A stretch of DNA of 64,000 nt from Heterodontus francisci (taxonomy: Eukaryota): assembly GCF_036365525.1 (NCBI RefSeq), contig NC_090383.1, forward strand, positions 53,857,378 to 53,921,377, read 5' to 3'. The notes under the pieces are model-generated. The model was not told where the DNA came from and did not search any database. It was given only the letters and a program-made list of their open reading frames with translations. The translations under genes and the position numbers were made by a program. This document shows positions 30,901 to 62,768 of this stretch, in pieces. Numbering within the stretch: the first letter of the stretch is position 1; the number at the start of each line of letters is the position of its first letter.

Positions 30901-33900
30901 GTAGCTTTGCACTCACATCGCCAGACCTCAGAAGGTTGTTGAAGTGCTTCCTACACTGCACCAAGGTCCTGCTGACCACATTGTAGTTGCTCACCTCCTG
31001 AGCGACCTCCATTCGAGCCTGCTTTGTCTGACTGGCTGGCTTCCTCCTGCCGCTCCCCAGAAACAGGACGCTCCTCCGAGCTGCCACCACCTCTAAAAGC
31101 ACCTTGAGGGAGGCATGTGCCTTTCCAACCATGCATGCCATGCTGTTGCTCCACTGCATTCAGGCCTCTGCCATCGCCCAGGATGTTGGCATTCACAGTT
31201 ATAGCAGCCAGTTGCCCTTTAAATTGGGCCTGCCATGATGAAGCCATGATGACACGCTGACTCTTCCACCCCTAATTTGGACAGTGAACGTGCCATCGGG
31301 GCACTAATTGGCTGCCTCCTTCAAAATACCATTGGACTTCCAGCACCGACAGGGAACAGGGTCAGGTCCCAGAAATGGTCCTGATGTCAGAGTCCCAACT
31401 CTGGAATGAAAATGCAGCCCACTCCCTCTGACTCCCAGCTTTCACCTGTTGGTCTCCAGCACTGTTTCCCCTCTGACTCACTCTCTCTGTCTCACAGAAT
31501 CACATTACAAAATTGATGGGGAACCTGGTGACATGGCTCCCTCCTCAAAGAAGGAGGATAATGAACAACCCACAACTGAAACGTGCTAAATAACTGATAA
31601 CCAATGAATATTCGCCCAGTAATGCTCAAAGTCACAGAATGAAAGATAGGTTTGAGAGATAAGTGGAATGGAGAAAAATATCAAAGGAGTCACATCTGGG
31701 CAGACCTTTAGTTGGACTGGTACAGAGGCACTGGAGGCAAACTTTGAGCTGGCAATTCATCTGACCGGAAGACAGCACAGCAATTAGAGTCAGGCACAAT
31801 GGAGATGGGAATAACTTCCCAGAGAGAAAAAAATAGCTTAACCACTTGATCAATATTCTAACTTTAATTTGCTCCCCCACCATAATAAGCAATAATTTGG
31901 GGCAGTCCACCTCCTCGCAGACAATCCTCCCTATTAATGAAGCTGCCATATCTGTAAAAACTGTTCAAGGGCCTGGATGCCGATGCTCCCTCCTTTTTTG
32001 CAGGATGTATTCCTCAGCAACACAACCAAAATTGGAGGGAAAGTATCACTGAACCCACATCCTGCTGTTAAAAGGCATTGTAACACCAACACACTCCAGA
32101 TCTTTCAAAGAAGCAGAAACAAAATCAAAGATCAGGGATTTACACTTGCAGACAGGGTTGTCACTGCACTTCTGTCAAAGTTACAGCAGCAGGGTGAAAT
32201 CAGGTGCAAGGAAATTGTTCGAAATCCTCACAATGTGGTGAGATGTTGTGCAAACGGACACCATACCAGACGAAAGCATTCACCTACATAAACAACCTTC
32301 AGCAATGACATTTAATTGTTACTATTGCTTTGTATAGAGAATACACAATGTTTGAACAGTAGCTGTTTGGTTAAAAACCTTGAAGGGAAACTTCCATATT
32401 GGTTTAGATGTTAGTGATAACATAAACTGGTTCCACAGGATTTACCTGAATATTGAAGTAAGGATCTTTCCCATTTCGTCCACTGTTTCATGCCACATTG
32501 TTGCACACAGATATATCATGACGTGGTCCGATTTCCTATTCAATAAATTGTTTTCATATTTTATTGTTACCAAATCTGTTCTAAATACTATACAATGCTA
32601 GGAATTCTTAGAAACTGTGATTATATAATTATATTTAGGTCAGTTAACCTTTCAGGAAATTACTTTTAAATTCCAATTATTTGGGAGACATTTTATGGGG
32701 ATAAATTTCCTAAGCTTTGCCCCCAGGGAATGCCTACTCCGCAGGTACAAAGGAAAAAGATGGAAGATCTCTAATACACCAGGTCCTCCCTAACCCTCTC
32801 TCCCACTTTACATTAACCCCAGATTTGGAGCTTCCCATTAGCTGGGCGTGCATCTGCTGTAGACACAGACCCTGCATTCAGATGTTAAAGCTGGCTTTGG
32901 TATTGAAGTCAGGATGTCCCTCATATCAGATGGTCAGAAAGTCCTGGCGGAAAGCCAAAGATTATTCCCAAAATTAGGAGCCATTTGTTAAAGCATCTGC
33001 CACATCTTTGAGTATTAGGATTGTCAGCTCTCGTTGGACGTAACCTGGAGAGTTCATCACCTGACCTCCCATCTCCAAGCACCTTGACCCCTCACTCCCT
33101 CTATTGGTTGGCTGGCCTGTCCATCTTCATGTCATCCCACCTTCCCATACCAATTGAATGCAAAGGATGAACCTTGGTCTTTTTACCATCTCTGATTTTT
33201 TCAATCTGTTCAACAAAGATTATTTCAGTGTCCTTATGCTTTTTCTCTTAGGTTACTTGGAGAAGTGTCCTGGGAATTAACCTTTAATTCTTGGAAACTC
33301 CAAGACATCCTTGGAAAACTGGAAACCCTCTTTGGTATTGGGGTCTTTCGGCTGTTACTGTTTAACAGCAGCCAGAAGGCCCCCAGCCTGCCAACTAGAC
33401 CCACAACTACAAGTCCCTGCACCTCTTTTTCCTGACCAGTACAAGGACCAATACCTGTCCTGCACAGAAGGCAGGCCTGTATCATGGGTATGACTGGACA
33501 GGCACAATGCTCTTCAAGCACACTGCACCTGTCCAGCACGCGAGCAGAAAGTGGCACCAGGAAATCAGGCTCTGTTTATATGAACTGGAACATTGTAATA
33601 TGTTCAATCTTCTAACTCCCACTAGAAATGATGAGAATGCAAGATTTGTTCTATTTAGCATCAACAAGTACATTTATTGGCGTTAATGCACTACATTTGT
33701 CATTTATAGTTGTCTGCTGCAATTAGATTAAATACAATTAGTTATAGCTGAATTACAGGATAGTCTACAGCTTCACACAATATCAATATTTTATCGAGGA
33801 AGAGTGAAATTGTTTGCATCCGACCAGCTCCATACTTCATAAATTACTCACTATCGATTCTGATGGTGCTTTTAGAGAAATGTACACAAGGAGATGTGTT

Positions 33901-36900
33901 ACAATCCCTAAAGCAGGCCATGTCACCGCAGCAGGCCTGGTGGGGAACAGAAAGACGTAATTTCAAAAAAACGAAGAGGCTGGTCATCCAGCACTGCACT
34001 GTGAGTACTGTGTTGCACAGAAGATCTTTGCAGACTTAGCTGTGAATTGTTCAAAACAATTTCCCTCGGGGTAAGGGATAAGAGAGCCAGAGAATGAGAT
34101 TTGTTTTTTCTTGGCACCTATTTTTGTCTCTCAATAAGGCATCAAGCTCTTAAATCCATCTCCACAATAGAATCGTAACAGTGTAGTCAAGGGTATTGCA
34201 TGCAGGCTCTCTTGTTCTAAAATAACTTTGGAGAAAGATATCTTTAAGAGATCAGTGAGAAAGTATAACAGACGACTGTACCTTTTAATTTTCTCATCTT
34301 TCTTTTTCTGGACCCGTGTGTTGAGCAGCATTGACTGTTCCATGAAGGCTGCTTCGTACAGCCGTCGAACAAACAGCTGGGATGTCCTTTCAATCCTTTG
34401 AATGTGTTGGCCCCACACATAGAATGTTGAGAAAAACAGCCCTAGCCAAAAGCATATTGCCAAGGAGCCAAGCAGTGCCAAGCCAACTCTGTTGGAATCT
34501 ACTATTACCTGCGCTCTGCAAAGGCTGCGAGGGATTTCTAAAAGCAGGATTTGTAGAGCGTCGCTATCATTGGAGGTTTTTAAAGTGTGGCAGAGGGCAG
34601 TCAGGTTAAAAGCAGCCGCTTCGCCATATTTAGTGGAACTGTCGTACATCACAATCAAAAAAGCAAAAAGCACTATTGGAGTGGCTAATATGGAAGGCAT
34701 GATGAAGCTGCGTCTGACTGCATGCATTTTACACACCAGAACCCCAAACCAGTGGCAAAGAGCAGAAGAAATCACTTGTACACCAAAGAGGCTCAAGATA
34801 ATGTTTACATCAAATTGCGAGACTGTTTTTACATCTTCCCAGTTATACTCCTTTATTGGAATCCATGCTGCCACTACAGCACCTGTAACTAGAATTCTAA
34901 TTGTACTGGTACAAACATACATGATGTTTCTGGTGTGTCGCAAACTTTCCCTTATATTTTCCATCACACCAATTTTACAGTACAATGTAAAGTTTTCCCA
35001 CCAATTGAAAGATACTAGTACTAAAGAAACTATTGCAAGGGCCACGTATGGTTGAATGTATTTAACCTCCTCTGTATGCTGTTGAGGGTTGTGAGCTAAA
35101 ATAAAAAGCAAGAGGCCCAGGAAGACAAAGCCAAAGCCTACCAGTGGGAGTAACATAGAAGGTTTGAGGGGTTTCAGCTGAAATGCTACTTGTAGAAGTG
35201 AGGGAAGGAGGCAAACGCCATTCAAAATGTGCAGATTGGTTATAATGTCAAAGTGAGGCATGCAGACCAGCACCAGGACTGAAGTGCCAAAAGCAACAAC
35301 TGCTTCAATCAAGCAAACCTGGCAAGAAAAGGGGCGGGGGGAACAAAAAAGTCAGAAAAGTTAAATTATAATGTTGCAATGCACTTAAAAATCAAACTTT
35401 GGAGTAAAGTGTTGATGAATAAGATACTTCGGTCATGTTCAGTTAGTTCCATCTGTTTTGATGGATAATTTCTGAATTTTATAGTACAGGAAAACTCCTC
35501 TCACACTGGGCTGGCTGCTTCGGTACATTTTCAGCTCATTGTCGTCAATGGAATTAAATATCAGGTGCTGTGTAGAAGGGGCAGCCAATCAGATTCTACC
35601 TGAGCTGAAGTTCTACCCCAAGGAGTTTATGAACCTCCATCTAGTGGTAGAAATGTGCAGCTGCAGGCAGGACTTTGCACCACAGAATGGTGAGATCCAA
35701 ATAAGGAGTGTGAGGTGTACTTGTCATATTTAATATATCATAGATTAGATATTTAACTGACCTTTTTTCTTTCTGCCTCTTTACCAGCATTTATTGCCCA
35801 TCCCTAATTGACCTTGAGAAGGTGGTGGTGAGCTGCCTTCTTGAACCGCTGCAGTCCATTTGGGGAAGCTATACCCACAGTGCTGTTAGGAAGGGTGTTC
35901 CAGGATTTTGACCCAGCGACAGTGAAGGAACGGTGATATAGTTCCAAGTCAGGATGGTGTGTGACTTGGAGGGGAACTTGCAGGCGGTGGTATTCCCATG
36001 CATTTGCTGCCCTTGTCCTTCTAGTTGGTAAAGTTTGTGGGTTTGGAAGGTGCTGTCTAAGGAGCCTTGGTGCATTGCTGCAGTGCATCTTGTAGATGGT
36101 ACACACTGCTGCCACTGTGTGTCGGTGGTGAAGGGAGTGAATGTTTGTAGACGGGGTGCTAATCAAGCGGGCTGCTTTGTCCTGGATGGTGTAGAGCTTC
36201 TGGAGTGTTGTTGGAGCTGCACCCATCCAGGTAAGTGAAGAGTATTCCATCACACTCCTGACTTGTGCCTTGTAGATGGTGGACAGGCTTTGGGGAGTCA
36301 GGAGGTGAGTTACGCACTTCAGGATTCCTAGCCTCTGACCTGCTCTTGTAGCCACGGTATTTATATGGCTACTCCAGTTCAGTTTCTGGTCAATGGTAGC
36401 CCCTAGGATGTTGATAGTGGGAGACTCAGCAATGGTAATGCCATTGAATGTCAAGGGGAGATGGTTAGATTCTTTCTTGTTGGAGATGGTCATTGCCTGA
36501 CACTTGTGTAGTGCGAATGTTACTTGTCACTTATCAGCCCAAGCCTGGATATTGTCCAGGTCTTGCTGTATTTCTACACGGACTACTTCAGTATCTGAGG
36601 AGTCACGAATGGTGCTGAACATTGTGTAATCATCAGCGAACATCCCCACTTCCGACCTTATGACTGAAGGTAGGTCATTGATGAAGCAGCTGAAGATGGT
36701 TGGGCCTAGGACACTACCCTGAGGAACTCCTGCAGTGATGTCCTGGAGTTCAGATGATTGACCTCCAACAACCACAACCACAGATGCTGCCAGACCTGCT
36801 GAGTATTTCCAGCATTTCTTCTTTTTATCACTGAAGATTAAAGTTGTCCCTTTGTTCGGGTTTGCTGATTTCCACTCAGATAAAGCAGATTCGTGAGTAG

Positions 36901-39900
36901 TTACTATTTCCTCAAGCCTCCTGCTTTGTGTCGACTCCTTGTCAATACATCAGATCGAAAAGTATAAAAATATTTGTATAACTTAAAGAAACATTTAAAT
37001 TAGACAATTTTTTTCTTTAAAATAAAGAAACACTTAGAGTGGCTAAAAGAGTCATTAATCCCTTTAAAATGAATAAATTAAACATCTGTAATTCTCATTT
37101 ATTACTTTATAATTTCAGGTTCTAAAAACAGAACTATGCGAAGTGATTGATGAATAAGCTTTATCCCCAAAATTTTACATAGAAAAATAGCATTGGTTTC
37201 TCTCCAAGAGTTTTTTTTTTAAAGAAAACCTGAAAATGACTGGAATTTTTTGTTAAAAATAATGAAAACTAAGGAACAGGAGGTTCAGCTTACCATTCCT
37301 AGAATACTCAGGGGGGGAGTATTGGATGATCCAAATGATGTTTTCCATAAGGCCTTGACAAATGCCAGAACATTAGGCACCAGTAATGCACAAGCTAAGA
37401 CAAGGTGAGTGAAAGGCTTATTTGCAAAAGGTGATTGAGTGTTTGAAGTGCTGATCAGTAAGAGAAGGCTGGTCTGCAAAACATAAAAGTATGTTTCTCA
37501 GTACTGACATCACTCACTTCAACATGGCAAAAAAGTACAAAATGGTGACTCTAATTTCATAAGATACTACCACAGTAGGTACAGCATCAAAAGTGATGAG
37601 CTCCCTTTATAAGGGGGCTAATCAGTGAAAGATAATGGAACAATTTCCGGCATCTTCCATGCTAGGACTGCAAGGCTGGAGATGACAAAGGCCTCAACTT
37701 GTCCTCTTAGCTGACCTTTATCTCAAGTTCATCGCAGCATCAGGTTGCTGGGTAGAAGGGACACTAGTGCTGAGGAAATTCCTAGTCTGGAAATCTCTCC
37801 ACTCAGCCCTGCATGATTCACTGTCATAAGCCAGGTTTGGATTGGATGCCAATTGCTGGACCAGACTGAGACCTGACAAATTTGAGTTCTGTTCAAATTC
37901 CCTGGGTTTGCTCTGTCCTGCGGGACAACTTACATCAGGAGTGCACTGTTGACACCAAGGAATGTTGGAGCCTTTATGTCTTCGTAGCTTATTTAATTGG
38001 AGAGGGTATTGTCATGACCAGGTGAGGAAGGGGTCTCAGGCTCCCCTTTCGTCCCTTGTCTAGTTTGACTGCAACAGGGTTTATCCTTTTTTTTTAACAT
38101 AGTGATTGAACTTGCCACCTCAGTGAGCGCTTACCCCTGTTCCTCTAATATAATTGCAAATGAACCAATCAGACAGGTTTCCTTGAGTTTAAAAAAGAAA
38201 GGTGTAAGTTTATTATCCTCAACACTCTAAACCGGTTAAAACTACTAAAATATAGTACGGATTCACACCCACATGAGAGACACACACACAACAAGTAGAT
38301 TACAGAAAGAAAACAGAGTTGGGTGGTTGGTGTAGAGTCTGAAATAAATGAAATTTAAATACTGTTCATCCGTCCCAGAGTCCTTAGTTGAAATTGTAGT
38401 CCTGTAGCTGGGCCACGAGCACAGTTTGGCCTTGCTTCTCAGGCTCCGAAAGGCAGAAGAGGGGTTCTGGTCCTTGTCCCCCAGTTGTTGGTTGTGGTGG
38501 TCTGTAGACTTGGCTTTACCAGCTGCAGCTGGGTCTTTTCTGGGTCTTTACTAGAGACAGAGAGAGTGCTGCTCTCTTGATGGCTGACTGTTACTGCCCT
38601 GCTTTCTGACTCGCAAAAGCTCTGACTCCCCAGAGTTGCACAGCCATCACACGACACTCCCAAATGTCTTTGTGTCTTAATGAGGCCTTCTGGAGCCAAT
38701 GTAGCTCAGCAAGCACAGGGGTGATGGGGAATGGGACTTACTATGAGTTAAGACATGGGAGCAGGGTTTTTGATGAGCTCAAATTTACAGAGAATGGAAT
38801 ATGGGAGACCAATCAGGCCCACACTGGAATACTCAAGTTTAGAGGTAACAAAGGCATGAATGAGGATTTCAGCAGCAGATGAGCTGAGACAGGGACAAAG
38901 TTGGCAATGTTACAGAGGCAGAAATAGGCAATCTTAGAGACGGCGCGAATATCAGGTCGGAAGCTTATCCCAGGGTCAAATGTGACACCAAGGTTGCGAA
39001 GAGATTGGCATAATCTTAGACTGCTGCCAGGGAGAGGGGACGGAGCTTGGAGCGGCAAATTTCTGCTCATCCAGTACTGAATGTCAGATAAGCAGTCTGA
39101 TAATTTAGCAACAGTGGAGGAGGCAAGAGAAGTGGTGATGAGGTAGAGCTGAGTGTCATCAGCATATATGTGAAAACTGACTGTGCTTTCAGATGATGGG
39201 CTGAAATTTCTTTTCCCACTGTTGAGAGTGGTGGCCCACACACATGGGCCAGGCACCATCACTCTGCCATGATCTAGCATGCAGCAGCTCATTTAAATAT
39301 GCAGGGTGGGCCACCACCCCCCCCCCAATCACAGGGTGAGGGCAACCTCACTGATGCCATGAACGGGTCTGTGGTTGCCATCTCACCTCTGAGTCGGCAG
39401 GTTGTGAGTCCAAGCCCCACTCCAGAGGACTGTGCACCAAATCTAGGCTGGCATTCCAGTGTGGTACTGAGGGAGTTGAGGGAGTGCTGCATAGTCACTG
39501 GTACACATCTTTGGGATGTAACATTAAACCGAAGCCCCTGCCTGTACTCTCAGGTGGGTGTAAAATATCCCATGGCACTATTTGAAGAGGAGTTATCGCA
39601 GATCCTGGCTAATATTTATCTCTCAACCAACACTCAAAAACAAATCATCTAACCATTTATTTCATTGCTGTTTGTGTACATCAAAAACCACTTCATTGGT
39701 TATAAAGTGCTTTGGGATGCCTTAAGGTCCTAAAAAGTGCTATAGAAATACAAGCTATTTTTCATATTATCATCCACAGATCTGCAGCAAAAAAATCACC
39801 ATAGTACTGTTGTTTAACAAACTTATTCAACGGTTTACAACATAACACAAGATGCTAAGCAATTCAAAGGTTACTTTTATTTCCAGTACTGTTTTTTCAA

Positions 39901-40782
39901 GCATTTACTGACCTTGCTGAGAAAGATAAATCCCAGCACACAAACTCCAAAGATAAAGCAGACTGTATACTGCAGGAATCGCACAAATTTCCCAGTGACT
40001 TCTTCTTCATCATTTACTGTTTTAAACATAAACGGATCCCATGTTTTCCTGAAACTAAATTTTTTAAAAATATATAATATTGCACCTGCTGTACATTGGT
40101 CTTTGAAGATTAATCACTGTAAATGTAATGTTTGGTAATTTTTGTTTTCGGTAAAATTGCCTAATTTTTTACATGACATTTCAACTACAACACAATAATG
40201 ATGACTATTAATAGCTGAAGCACAGGAGATATTAAGATGAACAGTGCAAATCAGAATTTCTTTACAGTAGAGCATCTATTACACATTCTTGAAAACAACA
40301 ATATTCAACTTAAAATTCATTGCAATTAATTTGATTTAAAAAGAAAACCAATTATCACATAACCAAATATTAGGGTTTTATTTACTTTGCTATCGTAAAG
40401 GGATTTCTTTTATATTGTTTGGCAGTTTTTCTATGCCTTAGAGTATTTTTATGTAAAGGCCTTTCCCCTTCACACAATGCATCCAAAACTTGCAACTTTA
40501 CCTGGTAGCAGAATGTGTTGTTTCAAATAGACATGGTGCTCTAAAACGTACAATTACTTTTTTAATTTACCAAACCAGCTATAAAACCTGATATTTACTG
40601 TCAAATAGTTAGGGGCCAAATGCCAAATCACATTTCAAATATTTTACAGAATTATTTATATGTCTATCTGTGTATCATTTTTGGAAATAATAAATTAATA
40701 TCACATTAGTGAAATGAAAAACGATTTACCTGTTTCCGTACAATCTTTTTACCTCATTGATATCCTGATTTTTACTCTCCAT
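6730..40782 (-). CDS. chs: Chitin synthase CHS-A (multi-exon gene span; 12 exons in window, 3' end beyond left edge)
   Basis: Spliced exons 40782-40730, 40048-39913, 37473-37294, 35318-34282, 32535-32446, 24587-24414, 20942-20762, 13714-13613, 12661-12520, 9966-9766, 9201-8917 and 6909-6730 all have GT-AG boundaries and join in one open frame (2761 nt). Motifs present: WDPF, CATMWHET, FDDAF, TPYGG, HKKRWSQ, LDGD, QKFEY, CSPGCFSLFR, QYDQGEDRW, QRRRW. Confidence 0.95.
7594..8277. mobile_element. Degraded Harbinger-type MITE
   Basis: Starts gggctgaatt and ends aaaatcca; C-rich interior resembles 10140-10974 and 42660-43213. Confidence 0.5.
8917..9201 (-). CDS. chs: CHS-A exon 11 (EDR and QRRRW catalytic motifs)
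   Basis: GEDRWLCTLLLQQGWRVEY...FYNQRRRWGASTLAN...MIA. Confidence 0.96.
9766..9966 (-). CDS. chs: CHS-A exon 10
   Basis: PVVWYQKFEYAIGHWLQKTAEHVLGCVLCSPGCFSLFR...FVQYDQ. Confidence 0.95.
10140..10974. mobile_element. Non-autonomous Harbinger-type MITE
   Basis: TIRs gggccggatttt / aaaatccagccc; 3-bp TSD tct. Confidence 0.8.
11355..11930 (+). mobile_element. CR1-group LINE family 1 fragment (RT C-terminus)
   Basis: FADDCTMFS..MQQDLDNIQAWADKWQVTF; closely similar to 2476-3060. Confidence 0.85.
12520..12661 (-). CDS. chs: CHS-A exon 9 (DxD motif)
   Basis: TEKENTYILALDGDTDFQPSAVILLVDRLRRYPHVGAACGRIHPTGT. Confidence 0.94.
12780..13491. mobile_element. Probable Harbinger-type MITE
   Basis: Degenerate termini (ggccctgatatt / aaatttcacccc) flanked by taa. 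Confidence 0.4.
13613..13714 (-). CDS. chs: CHS-A exon 8
   Basis: TMYMYYLLGWKLKRKH...ALK; completes the WSQxMYMYYLLG motif. Confidence 0.88.
14673..15607 (+). pseudogene. CR1 ORF1 (Zn finger/leucine zipper plus SGNH esterase), one frameshift near 15230
   Basis: CFTC..CRKC, IRDSIVR (GDS-like), CLPGA, VHIGTND, DGLHL. Confidence 0.85.
15607..18547 (+). pseudogene. CR1 ORF2 (APE endonuclease and reverse transcriptase); 807-aa open stretch, then a frameshift and a stop
   Basis: CFNARS, ITETW, GVYYRPP, DFN, GDH; KSPGPDG, NYRPVSL, DFSKAFD, QGSVLGP, FADD. Confidence 0.92.
19746..19781 (-). ncRNA. Minimal type I hammerhead ribozyme motif (Penelope pLTR)
   Basis: Reverse strand ttgcc-CTGAAGA-gt gcaag ac-GAAA-agct-TT-gacaa: core intact, one stem I mismatch. 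Confidence 0.65.
20496..20531 (+). ncRNA. Minimal hammerhead ribozyme motif, core mutated
   Basis: ttgtc-CTGATGA-gt gcaag ac-AAAA-agct-TC-gacaa; GAAA is changed to AAAA. Confidence 0.55.
20762..20942 (-). CDS. chs: CHS-A exon 7
   Basis: IFSREK...ETPYGGRISYTLPYGNTLYVHLKDKQKIRHKKRWSQ|gtacgt. Confidence 0.94.
21211..21531 (+). mobile_element. tRNA-derived V-SINE (HE1-like) with CR1-derived tail
   Basis: A-box gcagtggttagc, B-box ggttcgattc, V-domain-like core, tail gggcctgtttcagtgctgtatctc(taaa)n. Confidence 0.85.
21690..22830 (-). mobile_element. Fragmented CR1 LINE pieces
   Basis: Reverse tail taggaacataggagcaggag; KCEINKFGRKN..LGILIHESLK; ORF1 esterase piece near 22650-22830. Confidence 0.75.
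24414..24587 (-). CDS. chs: CHS-A exon 6
   Basis: LDKYKP...FDFEVHVYFDDAF...VVNEYVKSLVCTIDKIY; phase 2/2. Confidence 0.92.
25741..27302 (+). mobile_element. Young 5'-truncated CR1 LINE (uninterrupted 533-aa RT ORF)
   Basis: ORF 25743-27344 with KSPGPDG..FADD; tail (aatgttct)(atgttct). Confidence 0.92.
27797..28985 (+). mobile_element. Penelope-like element with inverted pLTR and two hammerhead-like motifs
   Basis: YLKLPWKG..EFQCQCDA..IG (GIY-YIG-like); homologous to 19726-20584. Flanks are cagggccattca / cagggccgctca. Motifs at 27846-27881 (-) and 28926-28961 (+). Confidence 0.8.
32446..32535 (-). CDS. chs: CHS-A exon 5
   Basis: KSDHVMIYLCATMWHETVDEMGKILTSIF(R); carries the animal CHS signature CATMWHET. 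Confidence 0.93.
33016..33329. mobile_element. Possible hAT-like MITE remnant
   Basis: Termini resemble agggttgccaact / gttggcaaccct, but are degenerate. Confidence 0.3.
34282..35318 (-). CDS. chs: CHS-A exon 4 (N-terminal multi-TM region)
   Basis: 1037-nt open exon, VCLIEAVVAFG...SFNWWENF...RIERTSQLFVRRLYEAAFMEQSMLLN; donor AG|gtacag. Confidence 0.93.
35785..36780 (-). mobile_element. CR1-group LINE family 1, 3' fragment
   Basis: GVPQGSVLGPTIF..FADD and C-terminal ORFs at 35804-36781. Confidence 0.88.
37294..37473 (-). CDS. chs: CHS-A exon 3
   Basis: TSLLLLISTSNTQSPFANKPFTHLVLACALLVPNVLAFVKALWK...ILGM; 180 nt; cag| and |gtaagc boundaries. Confidence 0.9.
38010..38656. mobile_element. Partial LTR related to 56662-57573
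   Basis: Begins tgtcatgaccaggtgaggaaggggtctc, like tgttatgaccagatgagaaaggggtctc at 56662. Confidence 0.55.
38810..39195 (-). mobile_element. L2-type LINE RT fragment
   Basis: FHIYADDTQLYL..CLSDIQYWM..RNLGVTFD. Confidence 0.75.
39365..39756 (+). mobile_element. Deu-domain SINE (SacSINE1/AmnSINE1-like)
   Basis: tRNA-like head, core ..ttaaaccgaagcccc..aaaatatcccatggcactatt, tail gtgctttgggatg..gtgctatagaaat. Recognised from memory of this family. Confidence 0.6.
39913..40048 (-). CDS. chs: CHS-A exon 2
   Basis: Acceptor tttcag|G. Encodes KTWDPFMFKTVNDEEEVTGKFVRFLQYTVCFIFGVCVLGFIFLSK. Donor gtcagt. Confidence 0.88.
40730..40782 (-). CDS. chs: CHS-A exon 1 (start codon)
   Basis: ATG...MESKNQDINEVKRLYGN(R), then donor AG|gtaaat. 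Phase 2 matches exon 2. Confidence 0.7.
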
Positions 40783-41609
40783 TTTTGTTTCAATAGTTAG
40801 CAGAGAAATCTTATCTATATGGGTATTCAGCTCGAGTAAGCCAAACACACTGAATGACCATACATACTTTCAATTTTTCCTTATAGGTGTGGTGTTCACT
40901 TTACATATTCAGCCACACCTATCTTCTCAGCTATGCCAAAGATAGTTTTTTTGAAGTGAACCAATTTACATAACCAGCTACAGCTACAGAGAAAAGATTT
41001 CTTACCATTTCCTTAATTATTAGAATGTTTTACTTATTCGAATATTTAATGGTTGTATGCAATAATTATAAATACACACTCAATGCCAGTGGGGGGCACT
41101 AAGTAACCTGACTAAGATTAGAAGTATATCTTCACTGAAATTGCACAGATTTCTTTGGTTACAGTTTCAACAAGTAGTCACCCAGTTCACCATTTGATGT
41201 CTATCATTAATCTGAAATCCAGAGCTTGAGTTTTCGGAATGTTTGTTTGTTGAATTCACTTGCCTTGGCTGAGTGGGTTTCGTGAAGCTTTAGCCAGGTT
41301 GCTACACAATGTCTTTTTACTAGTTTCTTTGTATAAATTAAGTAGCTGATGTGTGACACCATTTTTCACAGTTGTTGGCCCAGCCACTATAACAAATTCA
41401 TAGCACTGACCTGTTTGTTAACCTCTAGATCCAAACAGTGGACAAAATAAATAAAGGGCAACTGAAGAATTGATTCTACAAGTCAGAAAGATCAGATATC
41501 TCACTCATAACAATGTTACCAAAATCTCTTTCATGATTAAAATGAATACTGTTTTCACAGTTCTCCATTGCATACTGCACTGAGACCACAAGTTACAATG
41601 AAAAATAAT

Positions 41610-42430
41610 GGACTGGATTTTACAGGGCTCCCGACATCGGGCTCCGTGGCGGGGCTGGGGGCTGGAAGATCATTCCGGCAGCGGCCCACCGTGGAGCCTG
41701 ACGCCGGAAGGGCCAGGCCCGATCTTCCCAGACGCGGCGAGATACCGTGGCGGCCCTCCACCACCCCCCCCACCCAATGGGCGACGGGACCTGGATTAAC
41801 ACATGGTAATTAATTAAATGCATACATTTAAGTACACTTACCTGTGATCTAACGGTTGGGCCACTATCTTCAGAGCGGTGGCCAGCTCACCCACGCCTGC
41901 ATTTTTCCGTCTGGGGAAAGAAAACGCTGTAGTGGTAGGGAAGGGGAGAAAGTGAGATTTTTAGTGGCAGTGGGGTGGAGAATGGGGAATGGGTCAAACT
42001 TTATGATTAGTGTAGGGGATGGAGGGAAGGGGTGAACTTTGTTCAGTTTGGCAGTAGGAAGGTCAGATTTGAAAGGAAAGTGTGTGGGGGAGGAAAGGAT
42101 AGATACTTAATTTTATTGTGGGGTGGGAAAGGGGCGATAAAATTTTGATTTGTACAGTGGGGTGGAATTTAAGAATTTAAATTCACTAGCAGGGCTGGCC
42201 GCCCCTTAGAAATGGCGCCAGTGCTTGCACACAGGCAGCTAATGCCATTGCCAGCGTCGGAGGGCTTGCCCCTCCATGTGATTTGGGGAAGGGGTGCGGG
42301 CCAACCGGGTATTTAAATCAGCCACCACAAGGGAGATCGCGGTGGCATGACGGCGAGCAGCTCGCGCATGCGGGCTGCCAATTTTCTCATCCGCTGCCGT
42401 TCTCGGCGGCAGGCGCTTAAAATCCATCCC
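41610..42430. mobile_element. Harbinger-type MITE (same family as 10140-10974, opposite orientation)
   Basis: TIRs ggactggatttt / aaaatccatccc; TSD aat. Confidence 0.8.
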
Positions 42431-42659
42431 AATGTTTGCATTTTGTTTTAACCCCACTTGGCAAGTTCAAAGGGAGCTGTGAGAGCATGTCAAGGATGTC
42501 AAAGCAGCTCACACTCTTTATATGACTTTTATCTGTCTTTGCTTTGATTACCTTGCTAAAAATCATTTAAGCATAGGTCTAGGTTACACAACATGAGCTG
42601 TTACACCCAACTAGCGAGAGGAAATATCTCATTCTGCAATTAAATAGTGCTTATACAGT

Positions 42660-43213
42660 GGGCTGGAATTTATGTTGCCACTGACGTGATCAGTGACGGC
42701 CGTAAACTATGGTGGTCTGCCTGTGCGGACTGCTCTTCGTGGAACCGCCGTGATATTAAACGTGGCAGCTCATTTAAATGGCCGGGGCGGACCGCGCCCG
42801 GCAATGACAGGGAGGGGGCGGGCAGTCCATCCCCGGCAATGGTGTCAGGCGCCATTGCGCAGGCACCGACACCATTTTTAAAAGGCTTCGAGCCCTTCAA
42901 CTTAGTTTAAAAAGTTAGAGTTATAGGAATTGTAAATTGATTAAAAGAATTAAATTAATGTTTCTAGCCCCTCTCCCACCCCACCCCCAATATCCATTCA
43001 GTTCATTCCTTGCCCTCACCCCTCCCCCCACCAAAATACTCACCTCGTGTCCCTGACCTCCCTCGCCCGCCAAAGTTTATGAACTTTTAACCGCAACCCC
43101 TTCCCGCCATCTCCTACACCAATCAGATTAGTTTGAACCCACTCCCCACCTCCTGCACTGAAATACTTACCTGGTTCCCCCCTCCCCACCAGTGTCCTGC
43201 ATCGGAACTCCGC
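42660..43213. mobile_element. Truncated Harbinger-type MITE
   Basis: Left TIR gggctggaattt; interior resembles 10140-10690; right end missing. Confidence 0.6.
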
Positions 43214-43285
43214 ACAGGCAGTACCCAGAATTGAACTCGGATCCCTGGAGCTGTGAGGCTGCGGTGCTAACCACTGCGCTGCCCC
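43214..43285 (-). mobile_element. HE1-like SINE head fragment
   Basis: Reverse strand gcagtggttagcaccgcagcctcacagctccagggatccgagttcaattctgggtactgcctgtgcgg. Confidence 0.75.
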
Positions 43286-43288
43286 ATT

Positions 43289-44449
43289 TTAACTACATGA
43301 TAATTTTAACACATACAATATGACAATCAGTTGTGCAATTACTAGTACATGTGAAGCAATTCGAATCCAGGACGAGCTTTCAATATTAAATCCAATATCC
43401 CACCAAGGTGGGATACTAATTCCCCTGATCTCATCTCTTGTGTCCCTGTTTTTCCTCTTCGAGAGTATATTAATGCTTTTGGGAGAGTTCCACTTCCTTT
43501 ACCAGTTTTGCCAAATGCTCGGGTAACGATGGGATATCATACCCAAAATGGACTATGTATTCGTGAAGGTTTGATAAAACATCGCTCACTGTTAGATTTA
43601 CTGAGGCATGGAAGGACTGAGATAGGGATAATCCTTTCCTGTGAAATTGTACCTCTCTCTGGGGTTTTAAACAAAAGGTTGTGTCGTAAACTGAGCACCA
43701 TGTGTCATTGTGTATCCTATACTGGTAGTGGCACAGTAGGTTGCATTACCCTCATGTGCAACCTGCGGAGGGACATGGTTCTGAGCTATCACCTCCATAG
43801 TACAGTTAATGGGCTGTGTACTTTCAGACTCAAACCCACATACTGGTTGGTTGAACTCATTTAGGTGATATGGACTGAGCACTTCATGTGTGCCCCTTCC
43901 CCGACACCCCTTCAGATCAGTGCCAATCATAGAGTTCCCCCACTTAGCCACATTAACCCCTTGATCCTCCTTCCACCACTTGTTCCAACACAATTTCACA
44001 CCCTCCTTTATCCCTGTAGTCCATCTGTATGTGTTCCCAATCCCCGAATTCATCACCCTTCGCCTCATCTGTTTTATGTAACCACCACCACCAACCCACG
44101 GGGATGCTTCCCTGACATTCTAGACCACCTGCTTTCCCTCTGTCACCTGTACCTTGTTGGTTGTGATATATAATTTTGAGCAGAGCACTGATGCTTCAAC
44201 GAATGTGTACCAGTATGATTGGAATACTTGGTTGAATTTGACCCCAACCAACCCTTCCCTCATGGAAGTATGTAGCTATCCCGTCAGTGCCCTGTGTCTT
44301 ACCCCACTGTGGGCCTGGTTCCTCCCATACACCCGTAAGTGAAAGACATCTCGATGCCCCCTCGATCCGTCTGTCCTGCTCCAACAGGATTATCATCACA
44401 CTCAGCCACAGGGTACATCCCGTCTTGTGTTCCTGGCTCGACTTTGCTT
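43289..44449 (-). pseudogene. Decayed viral envelope/fusion glycoprotein-like remnant
   Basis: Reconstructed across frameshifts: signal-like TLWLSVMIILL, Cys-rich ectodomain with NCT/NAT/NLT sequons, a helical region, PPWWDIG, then the TM segment WIRIASHVLVIAQLIVILYVL. Confidence 0.5.
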
Positions 44450-45006
44450 CTGCAGAAAAGGAAAAGGAAAGAAAATAGCACTGCTCTGTGAGGGGTCTTC
44501 CCTCTACAGGTCAGACTTAGGTTATGTACAAATTTACACTACCTGAGAGATCTTCTCTCCACAGGTCAGACTTCCTTTTATGTTACTTTACACTGTGTGC
44601 CGCAATCACCGTGTCCCCTTTTTGTTTTTCCCAGGTTGGGACTTTTTGCGGTTCGGGATCGGTGTGCAAGGAGGCGTCCAGGGCACCCTGGATCGGGGTG
44701 TCCAACTACTCCCTCTTACCACCCTGCTCACTGGGTCTTGCTTTTAAACAAAGGAAACTCCCTTCTCAAAAATTAAAACTCTTTTATTTAAAAAAACATT
44801 TTCCCAAATTTAAAATTTTATTTTATCTGTTATTTACCTTTTTTAAGTGTTAGTTCTTTTTACAGATCTACCTTAACTCTGGTGTCCTAAGCTAGCTATT
44901 AGCACATTGTCCCTTACATGAAGCACCTACCAACCAATCAACGTACTAGTTTCCTGTGATGTCACAGTTGTTTTCTCACTCAGTTTCTCCAGCAGCTGAA
45001 AAGGCT

Positions 45007-45135
45007 CTGGGCTGTATTTATATAGGTAAGGCCACGCTCGAACCCTGGGCTGTATTTATATAGGTAAGGCCGCGCTCAATCCCTGGGCTGTATTTATATA
45101 GGTAAGGCTGCGCTCGATCCCCAGGCTGTATTTAT
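45007..45135. repeat. Tandem repeat, 38-bp unit x about 3.4, inside a minus-strand CR1-like 5' UTR
   Basis: Units at 45007, 45045, 45083 and 45121 (ctgggctgtatttatataggtaaggcc..). 44925-44966 matches the reverse of CR1 5' UTR 14413-14452. Confidence 0.85.
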
Positions 45136-45174
45136 GGCACACCCGGCTCCCGACTGCCTTTGCTCTGCTTTGCT

Positions 45175-46193
45175 CCAAGTTATGGTTATTGGAGGCCAAT
45201 TTTCTCAGCCCCAGGACATCAATGTAGGATTTCCTCAGGGTAGTATCCTAGGGCCAACCATCTTCAGCTGCTTCATCAATGACCTTCCCTCCAACATAAG
45301 GCCAGAAGTGGAATTGTTCACTGATGATTCCACAGTGTTCAGTGGCATCAAGTACTGAAGAGCAGTATGCACACCATGCAACAAGACCTGGGCAGCATTC
45401 AGGCTTGGGCTGATAAATGGCGAGTAACATTCACGCCACACAAGTAGCAGGCGGTGCCCATCTCCAAAAAAAGAGAATATAACCATCGCCCCTTGACATT
45501 CAATAGCATTACTATCACTGAATTTCTCACCATCAATATCTTGGGGGTTACCATTGACAGGAAATTTAACTGGGCCAGCAATATAAATACTGTGGGTACA
45601 AGAACAGGTCAGATGCTGGGAATATTGAGGCAACTAACTCATCTCCAGACTCCCCAAAGCCTGTCCACCATCTGTAAGGGGCAAATGAGGAGTGTGATGG
45701 AATATTCTCCACTTGTCTGGATAAGTGCAGCTCCAACATCATTGAAGTAACCCGACACCATCCAGGACAAAACAGGCTGCTTGATCACCACCCATCCACC
45801 TCTTTAAACAATCACTCCCTCCACCATTGGCATACAGAGGCTTCCATGTGTACCATCTACAAGATCCCCTGTAGCAACTCACCAAGGCTTCCTCAAGAGC
45901 ACCTTCCAAACCCACGACCTCTACCAACTAGAAGAACAAGGGCAGCAGACACATGGGAACACCACCACCTGAAAGTTCCCCTCCAAGTCACACATCATGT
46001 AACTTGGAATTAGATCACCATTCCTTCAATATTGCTGGATCAAAATCCTGGAACTCCCTCCCTAAATGCACTGTGGGTGTACCTACACCACATGACAGTT
46101 CAAGAAGGCAGCTCACTACCACCTTCTCAAGGGCAATTAGGAATGGGCCAGTCTTACCAATGATGTTCAAATCCCATGGATGAATAAAAAAAA
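45175..46193 (+). mobile_element. CR1-group LINE family 1, 3' fragment
   Basis: GFPQGSILGPTIFSCFINDL..FTDD; tail gaataaaaaaaa. Confidence 0.85.
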
Positions 46194-46553
46194 TGATTAA
46201 CAGTACATTGTTAAATGTGTGTACACAACCAATGTATCAGATGGAAAATGTGCAAAACCACATGTGAAGTGCAACTTTTAATAAATTCAGCAGTAAGAGC
46301 CAGAATTACCTAGGCACGTAGGGTGCTGCATGAAATAATTTTCCTCAGAAAATCTGGATAATGGATTTTGAAGTAATGCCCTTGTTTTCTTGATGCTATG
46401 CAAGCTTTAATTGTACTTTGTTGTTGCTGTGCGAAATGGTTTGGCGCATCTTATGTCGAAGAGAACATTTAGCAAACGTGTGAATTTTTTAGCATTGTCT
46501 GAAATCTATGAATTTTATGTAAGCGATTGTTTTAAATTATATATTTTTGTTAA

Positions 46554-46685
46554 ATCTGGGATCAGTTTGTTGCTTCTGCAGTTAACACTGAAGAAGAAAC
46601 CGCCTCAGAATGTATGACCATAATCCAGTTCTCCTGCTGCACAGTGCTTGGCATCTTAGGGCTTGGTCTGGCCCACTTAAGCAAG
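46554..46685 (+). pseudogene. chs: CHS-B exon 2 homologue
   Basis: IWDQFVASAVNTEEETASECMTIIQFSCCTVLGILGLGLAHLSK|gtgagt aligns with CHS-A exon 2. No AG at the expected acceptor (ttttgttaa|atc). Confidence 0.75.
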
Positions 46686-47509
46686 GTGAGTTGGTTCCAT
46701 CATGTAATCTATTGTTTTATTAATAACTAAGAACATTTGCCTACATTTTTGACCCAGAGTTTGTGAGGTAGGCCCAATCATGCAGATGGCACATTTTCGG
46801 TTGTTTATTTATTGTATCATATTTCAGAAATACTGTTATGCAGTATCCCACCCAAAAAGGTTAACCTACCTTTTTCTTGAAGATGCTAACTCACTTGCTG
46901 TATATTTCCAATATTTTCTTTTTTTAATTCTAGATTCCTAGCATTCGTTGTTCATCTTTTTTATCTCTACTGTCTCACTTGAAGCTCACCAATTTTAAAA
47001 ACACTACCTTCTGTTCTTCTGCTTTCTCCATTTGTCTATGCCTGTCAGTGTTTTTAAAACTTCATCCTCAGTCATGTCCCTTCTCAGTCTTCTTTTCTTC
47101 TGTTAAAGATTTGTAAATCTCTTTTTAGAACTTTTCCTACATTACAACGACGACAACAATTCAAAAGTATTTCAGTAGCTGTGAAGCACTTTGGGACATC
47201 CTGAGGTCATGAAAGGTGTTTTATTAAATGCAAGTCTTTCTTTCTCCATTTGTCAAGCCAATTAAAAGTAAAAGCAAATACAGGTGAAAACTGAAGCTAA
47301 TACATGCTGAACAATGGTAGCAAGACATGAGCATTAAGGTTAATTTTAGAATCAGCGTAATGCATATGACCTCTTTTTGAGGGGCGGGAATGAGTTGTGT
47401 GGAATTTAGCATAGCATCATAGAGTGCCCCAATGCATTATACAGTAGAACAGTGTTAAAATGGCCAGAATGTTACATATTAGTTCACTGACAACATTATC
47501 CCGGTGAGG

Positions 47510-50500
47510 TAAATGTTCACCTCCTGCCCCTTACCTTAAATCTATGCCCCCTGGTTACTGACATCTCTGCTAAGGGAAAATGTTTCTTCCTATCTACCCT
47601 ATCTATGCAGTCATAATTTTGTATACCTCAATCAGATACCCTCTCGGCCTTCTCTGCTCTAAGGAAAACAACCCTAGCCTATCCAATCTCTCTTCATAGT
47701 TGAAATGCTCCAGCCCAGGCAATATCCTGCTAAATCTTCTCTGCACCCTCTCCGGTGCAATCACATCCTTCCGAGAGTGTGGCAACCAGAACTGTACACA
47801 GTACTCGAGCTGTGTCCTAACTAGCGTTTTATACAGCTCCATTATAACATAAGAACATAAGAACTAGGAGCAGGAGTAGGCAATTCAACCCCTCGAGCTT
47901 GCTCCGCCATTCAATACTGGCTGCTGTCATCTCGGCCTCAACTCCACTTTCCTGCCCGTTCTCCATAACCTTTCAACCCATTACTAATTAAAAATCTGTC
48001 TATCTCCTCCTTAAATTTATTCAATGTCCTAGCATCCACCACACACTGGGGTAGTGAATTCCATAGACTCATGACCCTTTGAGAGAAGTAATTTCTCCTC
48101 ATCTCTGTTTTAAATCTGCTACCCCTTATCCTAAAACTATGACCTCTTGTTCTAGATTGCCCCACCAGAGGAAACATCCTCTCTACATCTACTTTGTCAA
48201 TCCCCTTAAGCATCTTATATACCTCAATTAGATCTCCTCTTATTCTTCTAAACTCTAGAGAGTAACGGCTTAAACTGCTCAATCTCTCTTCATAAGACAA
48301 AGCCCCTCATCTCTGGAATCAATCCAGTGAACCTCCTCTGAACTGCCTCCAATGCAACTACATCCCTCCTCAGGTAAGGGGACTAAAACTGTATGCAATA
48401 CTCCAGCTGTGGTCTCACGAATGCCTTGGACAGTTGCAGCAACACCTCCCTACTTTTATACTCTATTCCTTTAGCAATAAATGTCAAAATTCCATTTGCC
48501 TTCCTTATTACCTGCTGCACCTGTATACTAGTTTTCTGCAATTCATGCATGAGGACACCCAGATCCCTCTGCACTGAAGCACTCTGAAGTTTCTCTCCAT
48601 TTAGTTAGTAATGTGCCTTTCTATTCTTCCGACCAAAATGGATAACCTCACATTTATCCACATTAAACTCCATCTGCCAAATTTTGGCCCATTCACCTAA
48701 CCGATCCATATCCATTTGTAAATTTCTTATTTCTTTATTGAAACTTACTATTCCACCTATTTTAGTGCCATCTGCAAATTTGGCTATAGTACCTTCTACC
48801 TCTGCATCCAAGTCATGAATATAGATTGTAAATAGTTGGGGCCCGAGGACCGAACCCTGTGGCACCCCACTAGTTACATCTTGCCAACCAGAAAAAGATC
48901 CATTTATCCCAACTCTCTGTTTTCTGTTGGTTAGCCAATCCTCTAGCTAAGCTAATAAATTGCCCTTAACCCCATGTGATCTTACCTTGTGTATTAACCT
49001 TTTGTGCGGCACCTTATCAAATGCCTTCTGGAAGTCCAGATATACCACATCTACAGGATTCCCATTATCCACTTTACTTGTTACATCTTCGAAGAACTCT
49101 AGCAAATTATTCAAACATGCTTTACCCTTCATAAAACCATGCTGACTCTGATGGATTGCATTTTGACTTTCTAAATGTCCTGATATTACTGCCTTAATAA
49201 TGGATTCTAACAATTTCCCAACAACAGATGTTAAACTAACTGGTCTATAGTTTCCTACTTTCTGCCTCCCTCATTTTTTGAATAAGGGCGTTCTATTAGC
49301 ATTTTACCAATCCACTGGAACCTTTCCTGCATTCAGGGAATTTTGGAATATTATAACCAATGGATCCACTATCTCCGCTGCCACTTCCTTTAAGACCCTG
49401 GGATGTGGGCCATCAGGCCCTGGGGACTTGCCTGCCTTCAATCCCAATAGTTTGCTCTTTACCTTTTCCCTAGTGATGATGATTGTTCTAAGTTCCTCCC
49501 TTTCTATAACCTCTGAATTACTTGTTACTATTGGGATGGTACTAGAGTCCTCCACCATGAAAACTGAGGCAAAATCAAAAACTGATTTAGTTTCTCCACC
49601 ATTTCTGTGTTCTCCACAATTAGTTCCCAGTCTCATCCTCCAAGGGACCAACATTCACTTTAGCTACTGTCTTCCCTTTTATATACTTATAGAAGCTTTT
49701 GCTATCTGTTTTTATATTTTGCACTAGTTTTCTTTCATAATTTACCTTTGCTCTTCTTATTACTTTTTTAGTAACCCTTTGCTGATCTTTAAAATTTTCC
49801 CAATCTTCCAGCCTGCCACTGGCCTTTGCAATATGCTATGCCTTAATTTTTGGTCTTTATGTTATCCTTAACTTCCTTGCTTAGCCAGGGATGTTTTTTC
49901 CCCCTCTTAGAATCTTTCTTCCTCTCTGGAATATATTTTAGTTGGGAGGAATTGAATATCTCCTTAAACATCTGCCACTGCTCATCAACTGTCCTACATT
50001 TCAGTCTTCCTGCCCAGTCCACTAGGGCCAATTCTGTCCTCATGCCTATGCAATTACCTTTGTTTAACTCCAGAACGCTGGTGTGGGACTCCAGTTTCTC
50101 GCCCTCAAACTGAATTTGAAATTCTAGCATGCTATGATCACTCTTCCCTAGAGGATCCTTAACATGAGATCATTTATTAATCCCACCTCATTACACAATA
50201 CGAAATCTAGAATAGCCTGCTCCCTGGTTGGTTCCACAACATGTTGCTCCAAAAAAAAATCTCTAACACATTCAGTGAACTCACCCTCAAGGCTACCCTT
50301 GCCAATATGATTAATCCAGTCCAAATGCATATTAAAATCACCCATGGTTATTGGTGTACCCTTCTTACAAGCCCCCAGTATTTCCTGGTTTATACTGGGG
50401 CCCACTGCGGAACTACTGTTTGGCGACCTATAGATTACTCCCACCAGTGACTTCTTTCCCTTGCTACTTCTTGTTTCTACCCAGACTGCTTCTACGTCCT

Positions 50501-52793: not shown

Positions 52794-52976
52794 GTTTCTG
52801 TTTTACTCTTGATTTCTGCCACAGGTGATGATTCAATCCATTTTACCAATAAACCCTTCAGTCATCTGAGACTGGGTTGCACACTGTTAATTTCCAATAT
52901 TCTGACTATTGCAAAGTGTCTGTGGAAACTTTCATTCCGTTCTGAATCTATGATCTTCACATACAGCCTGATAACA
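52794..52976 (+). pseudogene. chs: CHS-B exon 3 homologue (open)
   Basis: ttccag|VSVLLLISATGDDSIHFTNKPFSHLRLGCTLLISNILTIAKCLWK...|gtaagt; aligns with CHS-A NKPFTHL...KALWK. Confidence 0.85.
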
Positions 52977-55474: not shown

Positions 55475-56505
55475 GTCTGCATTCTGGAAGCATTCACATT
55501 CCTCGGTACAGCATCCCTGATTGTCATCTGCCTGCCCCACTATGACAAATTGACAACTGTGTTCCTTTCTAACAGTATTAGTTTAATTCCATCCGTTCTA
55601 CGAGTGGTATCTCAGAAAACCAGCCGACAGCTCAGTGTGACAGGACCTCTGTCAGGGTTGCTCCTTCTCTTGTGCAGTTACATATTCTTTCTATTTGTCA
55701 ACGTTTGGATCTAAAGGAATATGATAGTGTATACTTGGGACTCATCACATTTTTCTCTGTTTTAACATCTCTGAGTTGGTGGGAAAATTTTAATTCAAAT
55801 TGGAAGTATCCAATATTTAAACTTCTAAGGTTTGTGCATGATAAATGCAGGAATATGGTGAGCCTCTGGACAAGTGTAGTGAGAATTGTTATTACTGCTT
55901 CTGTAGTGGGAGCTGGGATTGCTACTAAGGAATTGGAGTGGGAAACTGTCAGTGATGTTGTATCGCATGAAATCAGAATAATTCTGGGTCTTTTTGCAGT
56001 GCAGGCTGGTGCATCAGTACTTTGTTCCTGGATTGGGATGGTTGCATGTAAGATCCATGCAATGAGACAATGTTTCGTCCTTCCTTCAGTTTTGAATACA
56101 CCGTGGTACTCTTTTTCTGGTGGTTTTTAGGATTCGCTACAATGACTTTTTACAAACAGACAACAAGTTCAACCTCTCAGATCTCTGTGCTTATTCCACA
56201 AATCGTGTGAATAATACACTTAGTGTAGAGATCCTTTATTCAGAAATCATTCGCAGCATTTGCAGCCTGCAGGGTGGTACATCAAATCAAGCCAGTGTTT
56301 GGTTAGTAGGGGTGGTTGGGGCATGCTGGTGGGTTGGGCTCATTCTTCCAACGATCTACCTGTGGACTCAGAATATCAACAGAATACAGCGGACATCAGA
56401 GATCTTTGTTCGGAGGATGTATGAAGCTGCCTTTCTAGAACAATCCATGCTGCTGAACAAAAGAATTCACATTAATCCACATCAGCCTGCGGAAAGTAAT
56501 CCAAG
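55475..56505 (+). pseudogene. chs: CHS-B exon 4 homologue, frameshifted
   Basis: VCILEAF..., SLSWWENF..., ACKIHAMRQCF... and RIQRTSEIFVRRMYEAAFLEQSMLLN lie in ORFs 55418-55714, 55672-56130 and 56120-56536, with frame changes near 55705 and 56100-56115. Confidence 0.88.
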
Positions 56506-56661
56506 GGATAAACATAATGGAATGTTTCATATTTAATTAGCAGGAGATTCCCAGATTGCCATTCAGATCAAGATATCCAATTTATTTGGTAACATGAATG
56601 TTCATAATTCTGTTTTCCAGCCCAGCATAAAAACCAAAATGCAGGATATACAGAAGCATAT

Positions 56662-60150: not shown

Positions 60151-60240
60151 GAAGACAAGAAAAATGATGATTTATGTGGGTGTGACTATGTGGCATGAAA
60201 CATTGGACGAAATGATTCGAATAATATCTTCATTGTTCAG
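60151..60240 (+). pseudogene. chs: CHS-B exon 5 homologue (open)
   Basis: ttttacag|...KTRKMMIYVGVTMWHETLDEMIRIISSLF..|gtaagc; 90 nt, the same length as CHS-A exon 5. Confidence 0.88.
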
Positions 60241-62582: not shown

Positions 62583-62768
62583 GTTGGACCAATTCAAGGA
62601 AAAATGTCGGAAGGCTGCAATCAAAAGTGATGACAGCTTTGATTTTGACATTCACATTATGTTTGATGATGCATTCAGGAATGTTACCGATAAAGAGGCA
62701 AGCACCAAGAAGAGGGTTCTTAATGAATATGTTGAGTCAATTATCAAAACAATAGATGAAACTTATAG
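62583..62768 (+). pseudogene. chs: CHS-B exon 6 homologue (open)
   Basis: LDQFKEK...FDFDIHIMFDDAF...VLNEYVESIIKTIDETY..|gtatgt. Confidence 0.88.

Follow-up and report, generated by a model that had tools for sequence, protein, structure and literature searches.

When two chitin-synthase homologues diverge from a common spacer with matching exon layouts, do they form a working pair with shared regulation, or has one partner died? The question is raised by a window of 64,000 nucleotides from the horn shark Heterodontus francisci (contig NC_090383.1, positions 53,857,378 to 53,921,377, forward strand), analysed here over its whole length, in which a chitin synthase (CHS) gene on the minus strand, CHS-A, stands beside a homologue on the plus strand, CHS-B. 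The locus is very probably an old elasmobranch chitin-synthase cluster consisting of one working gene and a divergent, duplicated (intron-containing) pseudogene neighbour. The arrangement is real; a co-regulated working pair is not supported, and the locus is instead a record of gene loss.

The head-to-head divergence of the two homologues from a common spacer, proposed in a preliminary description of this stretch, was confirmed by tblastn. On the 3' side, coding exon 2 of CHS-A stops exactly at 39913 and that of CHS-B at 46685, the two limits given there for the pair. Its statements on gene structure also hold: intron phases are identical for exons 2-6 (142/180/1037/90/174 nt in A, about 141/183/1031/90/186 nt in B), exon 5 measures 90 nt in both, and the proteins are divergent, with 214 of 521 residues identical (41%). 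An assembly duplicate is ruled out because of this 41% identity, the sole exon-level DNA match to A being a 48-nt stretch in exon 5. The proposed spacer of about 5.8 kb needs correction: 5,774 nt run from the ATG of A to the middle of exon 2 of B, and the start-to-start distance is 5,458 nt.

CHS-A was reached through the large open exon at 35318-34282 (minus strand), which retrieved chitin synthases, the best match being the H. francisci RefSeq model P0001; orthologues were mapped onto the window and the splice sites fixed. The gene comprises 12 coding exons between 40782 and 6730:

40730..40782, minus strand: CHS-A coding exon 1, 53 nt, ATG at 40782, GT donor, matching the N-terminus of shark orthologues.
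39913..40054, minus strand: CHS-A coding exon 2, 142 nt, phase 2-0.
37294..37473, minus strand: CHS-A coding exon 3, 180 nt, phase 0-0.
34282..35318, minus strand: CHS-A coding exon 4, 1037 nt, phase 0-2, hydrophobic N-terminal region.
32446..32535, minus strand: CHS-A coding exon 5, 90 nt, CATMWHET motif.
24587-24414, 20942-20762, 13714-13613, 12661-12520, 9966-9766, 9201-8917 and 6909-6730, minus strand: CHS-A coding exons 6-12, carrying DGD, QKFEY, GEDR and QRRRW.

All introns are GT-AG, the 922 codons (2,767 coding nt) hold no stop, and the translation agrees with P0001 at all 778 residues that the two share; the gene extends past the window start, with its remaining 3' part outside. The motifs CATMWHET, DGD, QKFEY, GEDR and QRRRW are all present in one open frame, and P0001, to which window A is identical over those 778 aa, passes the Pfam Chitin_synth_2 model (glycosyltransferase family 2, GT2) with 96.6 bits against a cut-off of 27. 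In two sets of sites conserved across the family, 56 and 161 in number, CHS-A alters 4 each; these counts fall inside the range set by 12 other A proteins and give no sign of relaxed selection. Judged by its open frame and motifs, CHS-A is most likely the animal's working chitin synthase. Its product would be a membrane GT2 enzyme, about 1,220 aa long, which, as is known for the family, polymerises UDP-GlcNAc to chitin and exports the product.

CHS-B, which runs on the plus strand from 46241 to 62768 and beyond, keeps the phases of A in exons 2-6:

46241-46263, plus strand: CHS-B candidate coding exon 1, 23 nt (ATG, 7 codons, 2 nt, then GT), phase 2, weak GT donor.
46545..46685, plus strand: CHS-B exon 2, about 1 nt short, homologous frame from 46557, 5' boundary set by alignment to A.
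52794..52976, plus strand: CHS-B exon 3, 183 nt, open, GT-AG.
55475..56505, plus strand: CHS-B exon 4, 1031 nt, with two frameshifts, a stop and a GG donor.
60151..60240, plus strand: CHS-B exon 5, 90 nt, CATMWHET changed to GVTMWHET.
62583..62768, plus strand: CHS-B exon 6, 186 nt; any catalytic exons that survive would lie past the window end.

The length of candidate exon 1 is the one that the stingray orthologue P0130 predicts, and its score was equalled by 3 of 1000 shuffles and by none of 21 other real tiles. The coding region downstream is broken in several ways. At exon 2, AT (46543-46544) stands where the acceptor AG of A is homologous, with no AG there, and an in-frame TAA immediately precedes the conserved W-D codons. 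Exon 4 carries a -1 frameshift near 55693, after which a stop is reached at 55712-55714; at about 56104-56113 a second net frameshift brings the frame back, and the reading of the exon is thus spread over three frames. Because the two shifts total -6, the exon still appears in phase. The exon-4 donor is GG (56506-56507), the sole nearby in-phase GT being a poor site 18 nt downstream. At the CATMWHXT motif of exon 5, the B2 form of rays (see below) also varies, with CVTLWHE.

With at least four independent lesions in CHS-B and none in the 2,767 coding nt of A, a pseudogene is far likelier than an assembly error. That the lesions are assembly or consensus errors, and that the animal carries an intact B, is hardly credible: the second frameshift does touch a run of five T, a typical long-read indel site, but the lesions are of differing kinds, two of them are splice-site substitutions, the 12 exons of CHS-A show none, and truncation affects P0121, the other B copy of the horn shark, too. 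CHS-B has two features of a duplicated (unprocessed) pseudogene, with the exon-intron structure of its parent kept and lesions present while the stingray orthologues P0130 (1249 aa) and P0129 (1222 aa) are intact. A CHS-B transcript, if there is one, would end early in exon 4, ahead of several junctions, and would be degraded or yield a short non-catalytic peptide. The locus warns that matched exon phases are no sign of two working genes.

What lies between the two starts bears on the regulatory part of the question:

40783..46240, no strand: start-to-start spacer, 5,458 nt, of which at least 42% matches repeats recurring elsewhere in the window.
41601..43279, no strand: GC- and CpG-richer spacer centre, made of dispersed repeat copies, with a 1.26-kb imperfect palindrome (41933-43191) and a 74-nt short repeat (43206-43279).
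45007..45135, plus strand: 38-nt tandem repeat in 3.4 copies, with a TATA-like and a splice-donor-like motif in each unit; a CCAAT box stands at 44932.
45179..46193, plus strand: truncated long interspersed nuclear element (LINE), a reverse-transcriptase fragment 74-79% identical to four other copies in the window.

The preliminary description had suggested that two functional paralogues share regulatory elements in this spacer and divide chitin synthesis between tissues. The divergent orientation, the 5.5-kb distance and the matching exon layout are what such a pair would show, a TATA-like motif does lie upstream of each ATG, and the intact B orthologues of rays mean that the working-pair reading could apply there. 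For the horn shark it is highly unlikely. CHS-B, whose frame is broken by two shifts and an early stop and which has lost two splice sites, is without a protein product, and neither shared regulation nor tissue-specialised synthesis by both copies is supported for this genome. The upstream regions are not detectably similar: a local alignment of the A- and B-upstream 200-mers reaches 36.5, a value matched by 29 of 1000 shuffles and by 75 of 1271 real tiles of the window, so that a shared or homologous promoter was rejected. A spacer CpG island was likewise rejected, the CpG-richer tiles lying mostly within dispersed repeats and the palindrome. The TATA-like motifs, at 41074 (minus strand) and 45015-45091 (plus strand), lie about 3.9 kb apart (41074 to 45015). 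CDX-like motifs number 0 upstream of A, 1 upstream of B and 20 across the window, and are uninformative. The eight open reading frames of the spacer gave no credible Pfam domain (one match at E 0.077), and Rfam gave no match in the window, spacer included. There is, then, no support for a single shared promoter in the spacer, and the likeliest arrangement is a separate promoter, present or past, for either gene at its end of the spacer; the repeat at 45007-45135 is possibly what remains of B's own promoter or 5' untranslated region. The LINE fragment that follows it (RVT_1 E 2e-6, below the curated cut-off) ends about 50 nt upstream of B's candidate ATG.

By the usual definition, a bidirectional promoter pair has transcription start sites within about 1 kb of each other, often a CpG island, and two expressed genes. 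The horn-shark locus resembles such pairs in its divergent transcription out of one intergenic region and differs in that its start codons are 5.5 kb apart, its centre is repeat-derived and one partner is a pseudogene. As a regulatory arrangement, the locus is ordinary.

Transposon remnants are also present outside the spacer. Long LINE remnants lie in CHS introns at 15583-18030 (plus), 25701-27344 (plus) and 47600-50600 (minus); the first two retain open stretches of 815 and 547 aa with RVT_1, and that at 15583-18030 has an endonuclease domain as well. At 3355-3690 (plus) and 30854-31159 (minus) there are DDE_Tnp_4 and Myb/SANT-like fragments, at or below curated cut-offs, which we take to be typical of Harbinger-type DNA transposon remnants.

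To which lineage the dead gene belonged can be read from its relatives. A piece of B exon 4 used as query gave 8 matches among 885 candidates, and the C-terminal portion of a skate B protein was searched as well (the best 120 of 2294); together they yielded eight B-type proteins from six elasmobranch species:

P0121, horn shark: 586 aa, 86% identical to window B, no Pfam CHS domain.
P0122, sevengill shark Heptranchias perlo: 1060 aa, the model lacking both ends.
Mobula: 420 aa.
Rhinoraja: 1140 aa.
Amblyraja: two proteins, 447 and 1042 aa.
P0129 and P0130, stingray Hemitrygon akajei: 1222 and 1249 aa, both full length.

A local BLAST of all 345 retrieved proteins added no B-type protein and found none outside elasmobranchs; two candidates, P0327 and P0337, were rejected because they match sturgeon CHS and teleost chs1. 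QKFEY, GEDR and QRRRW are present in the full-length B proteins of the stingray (P0129, P0130) and of skates, and in all five near-full-length B proteins QRRRW is followed by DPSK. Among 13 chondrichthyans with an A protein, four also yielded B; for the other nine (Cetorhinus, Pristiophorus, Mustelus, Scyliorhinus, Rhincodon, Stegostoma, Pristis, Narcine and Callorhinchus) no B was retrieved from the protein sets. Its absence from other sharks is weak evidence of loss, since clusters hide species, pseudogenes fall outside protein sets, and the exon-4 search missed P0129 and P0130. In all four species where both were retrieved, A and B have the same chromosome-length value, a statement at chromosome level only.

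Trees were built from 58 rows with FastTree, from 34 of these with IQ-TREE under LG+C20, and from a 508-column core with more distant representatives, the many other teleost hits being left out. Clade A (9 rows) and clade B (8 rows) each receive 100/100 with IQ-TREE LG+C20, and the CHS of the chimaera Callorhinchus is the first branch within clade A, so that the A/B split predates the separation of chimaeras and elasmobranchs. In all five trees B falls outside a group of A and bony-vertebrate CHS, which has 99/98 under the site-heterogeneous LG+C20 model. The full-length approximately unbiased (AU) test rejects an A+B clade (p=0.0137), a hypothesis taken from the preliminary description before the trees were built. 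The old duplication inferred there, which formed a CHS cluster, is thus borne out by the separate clades, the position of the chimaera and the chromosome-length values (four of four species), and the phylogeny that it had proposed upholds the old split and not the pairing of A and B as sisters. Its alternative, that the copies belong to different clades juxtaposed by rearrangement, is partly realised: B is never sister to A in the five trees, yet the two are linked.

In its full form that alternative makes A and B old unlinked paralogues, for instance copies from a genome duplication, joined by rearrangement in the horn-shark line. A and B are indeed not sister clades, and their orientation is known from the horn shark alone; yet A and B also have equal chromosome-length values in the sevengill shark, skate and stingray, from which it follows that the linkage predates the shark-ray split, and a late junction is unlikely. 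The course favoured by the tree is that a local duplication would have parted A and B before chimaeras and elasmobranchs separated, that B would later have given B1 and B2, and that B1 would have duplicated again in the horn-shark line, leaving window B and P0121 (86% identical), both of which look disabled. The core tree splits B1 (sevengill shark, Hemitrygon P0130) from B2 (skates, Hemitrygon P0129); Mobula is placed in B2 by the full-length tree, and window B in B1 by exons 2 and 5.

P0121, whose chromosome-length value equals that of A, is a third horn-shark CHS copy, of B1 type. It is a separate paralogue and not an allele of window B, because the 86% identity holds evenly across exons 3-6, whereas A and the model from the same species match at 100%. 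Its model starts in an alternative frame of exon 2, omits 21 exon-4 residues at the place where window B carries its second frameshift, and lacks the catalytic domain; P0121 is probably a second pseudogene. Other B models are uneven. P0129 and P0130 agree at 311 of 344 residues in exon 4, whereas exon 2 has only 17 identical residues of 48 and exon 12 only 22 of 60 (35-53% for exons 2, 5, 12 and the C-terminus), a pattern that may reflect either exon-limited gene conversion between neighbouring B1 and B2 or a chimeric model. In the P0122 model exons 1-3 and the C-terminus are absent and a LINE-like insert is present; the sevengill B may be damaged or mis-modelled.

Several points weigh against a working A beside a dead B of great age. 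The RefSeq model P0001 begins at residue 145 and so leaves out exons 1-3, all of them intact in the window; it stops about 165 aa before its orthologues do, although it has the C-terminal WGTRE motif. In A this motif, the final membrane helices and the 3' end of the gene lie beyond the window. The missing ends are probably mis-annotation, a broken or missing 3' end of CHS-A being the other possibility. The pseudogene call was made on the assembly sequence. Substitutions argue for relaxed selection in CHS-B only weakly: at B-invariant sites window B departs at 26 of 211 and P0130 at 8 of 211 (Fisher p=0.002), a contrast biased by relatedness; in a fairer comparison on one ray-only site set, window B departs at 44 of 234 and Heptranchias at 31 of 234; and at family-conserved sites window B and the intact P0129 have equal counts of departures (10 of 60 each). 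These mixed protein-level tests suggest that CHS-B died fairly recently. Linkage of A and B in the relatives rests on equal chromosome-length values, not on coordinates.

The remaining points concern the date. The B stem is long (0.59, against 0.28 for A), the lamprey composition is atypical, and with invertebrate-like outgroups on the catalytic core the deep placement has a Shimodaira-Hasegawa-like approximate likelihood-ratio test (SH-aLRT) value of 85 and the A+B clade is not rejected (AU p=0.094). The duplication may then have been confined to cartilaginous fishes, with B drawn to the base of the tree by fast evolution, a reading that touches the dating only. It needs fewer losses, as no B-type protein was found outside elasmobranchs among the 345 retrieved, and of 161 conserved core sites B proteins have changed 10-24 and A proteins 1-6. 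Against it stand the five of five trees with B outside A and the bony vertebrates, the 99/98 of the site-heterogeneous model and the full-length AU result, and we put its chances at somewhat below even. A split of A and B before bony and cartilaginous fishes parted is favoured, not proven: since the long stem and the atypical lamprey leave long-branch attraction open, it receives only modestly better than even weight.

A fuller scenario, which we offer tentatively and hold to be less probable than its negation, would make two linked CHS lineages ancestral to jawed vertebrates, with all bony-vertebrate CHS derived from A. B would survive in elasmobranchs only: rays and skates would keep it whole and in two forms (B1, B2), in the horn shark it would be decaying, and most other sharks and the chimaera would apparently have lost it. 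The pair would be a relic of more than 400 million years; B would be an enzyme kept by rays, with an active-site neighbourhood of its own (QRRRW-DPSK), and would make a separate chitin structure, and A alone would supply the electrosensory gel.

Chitin in vertebrates is a recent finding, and the gene behind that of the shark electrosensory organs is still in question (10.1101/687301). The ampullae of Lorenzini of skate are reported to contain chitin and to express CHS, and chitin is also reported from the ampullae of catshark and ratfish (10.1101/687301). For catshark and for Callorhinchus, a relative of the ratfish, only A-type proteins were retrieved, which makes A the parsimonious ampullary enzyme and CHS-A the likeliest source of ampullary chitin, as far as retrieval can indicate. 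Because species with ampullary chitin seem to lack B, the expectation is that A is the ampullary enzyme and that B1 and B2 mark another tissue in rays. In cartilaginous fishes one generic annotation thus covers at least three CHS lineages of differing fates, and what remains at the horn-shark locus is a functional gene beside a pseudogene of an old, apparently uncatalogued elasmobranch paralogue lineage. The significance is modest, as gene-family history; it would be larger if the B lineage does predate the split of bony and cartilaginous fishes and is functionally distinct in rays.

No account of the chondrichthyan CHS repertoire, its paralogues or its synteny was found in the literature searched; since subscription papers, theses and the supplement of 10.1101/687301 were outside reach, "undescribed" is provisional. 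In their available text, PMC6109156 makes no mention of sharks, PMC11979771 yields no mention of chitin on a term search, and PMC9316214 does no more than place tilapia chs1 near csmd1. The evolution and gut expression of teleost CHS are covered in the accessible part of PMC10234404. In our trees the non-teleost ray-finned fishes Erpetoichthys (P0113/P0052) and gars (P0048/P0151) have members in both a long chs1 clade and a chs2-like clade, and the reedfish pair has an equal chromosome-length value; if these are the two teleost subclades of PMC10234404, as far as its accessible part defines them, the split would be older than the teleost genome duplication proposed there.

The closest known systems can be set beside the horn-shark locus as follows. 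LeCHS, from the ampulla canal epithelium of the little skate (10.1101/687301), is likewise a chondrichthyan CHS tied to endogenous chitin; unlike here, it was treated as a single probe, and the account of chondrichthyan CHS genes was deferred. CHS-A is the RefSeq "chitin synthase chs-2-like" protein (P0001, 778 of 778 residues), a metazoan type II enzyme of the class defined in PMC3942024, in the portion available, and carries the EDR, QRRRW, QKFEY and CATMWHXT motifs listed in the accessible text of PMC10234404; RefSeq, in contrast to the lineages recognised here, uses one generic name for all shark copies and does not separate A, B1 and B2. Several CHS with one chromosome-length value also occur in Bombina (4), Chanos (3), Danio, Polypterus, Lissotriton, Conger and Sardina, and linked CHS copies look like the vertebrate norm. 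Adjacent CHS genes have a parallel in the major histocompatibility complex (MHC) class Ib region of salmonids, where, according to the available parts of PMC1971071 and PMC7853315, a tandem CHS cluster varies in copy number with species. That cluster is described there as the product of an insertion and later, lineage-specific duplications, with genes about 45 kb apart, whereas the horn-shark pair is 41% identical, divergently oriented, 5.5 kb apart, far older, and has one dead member.

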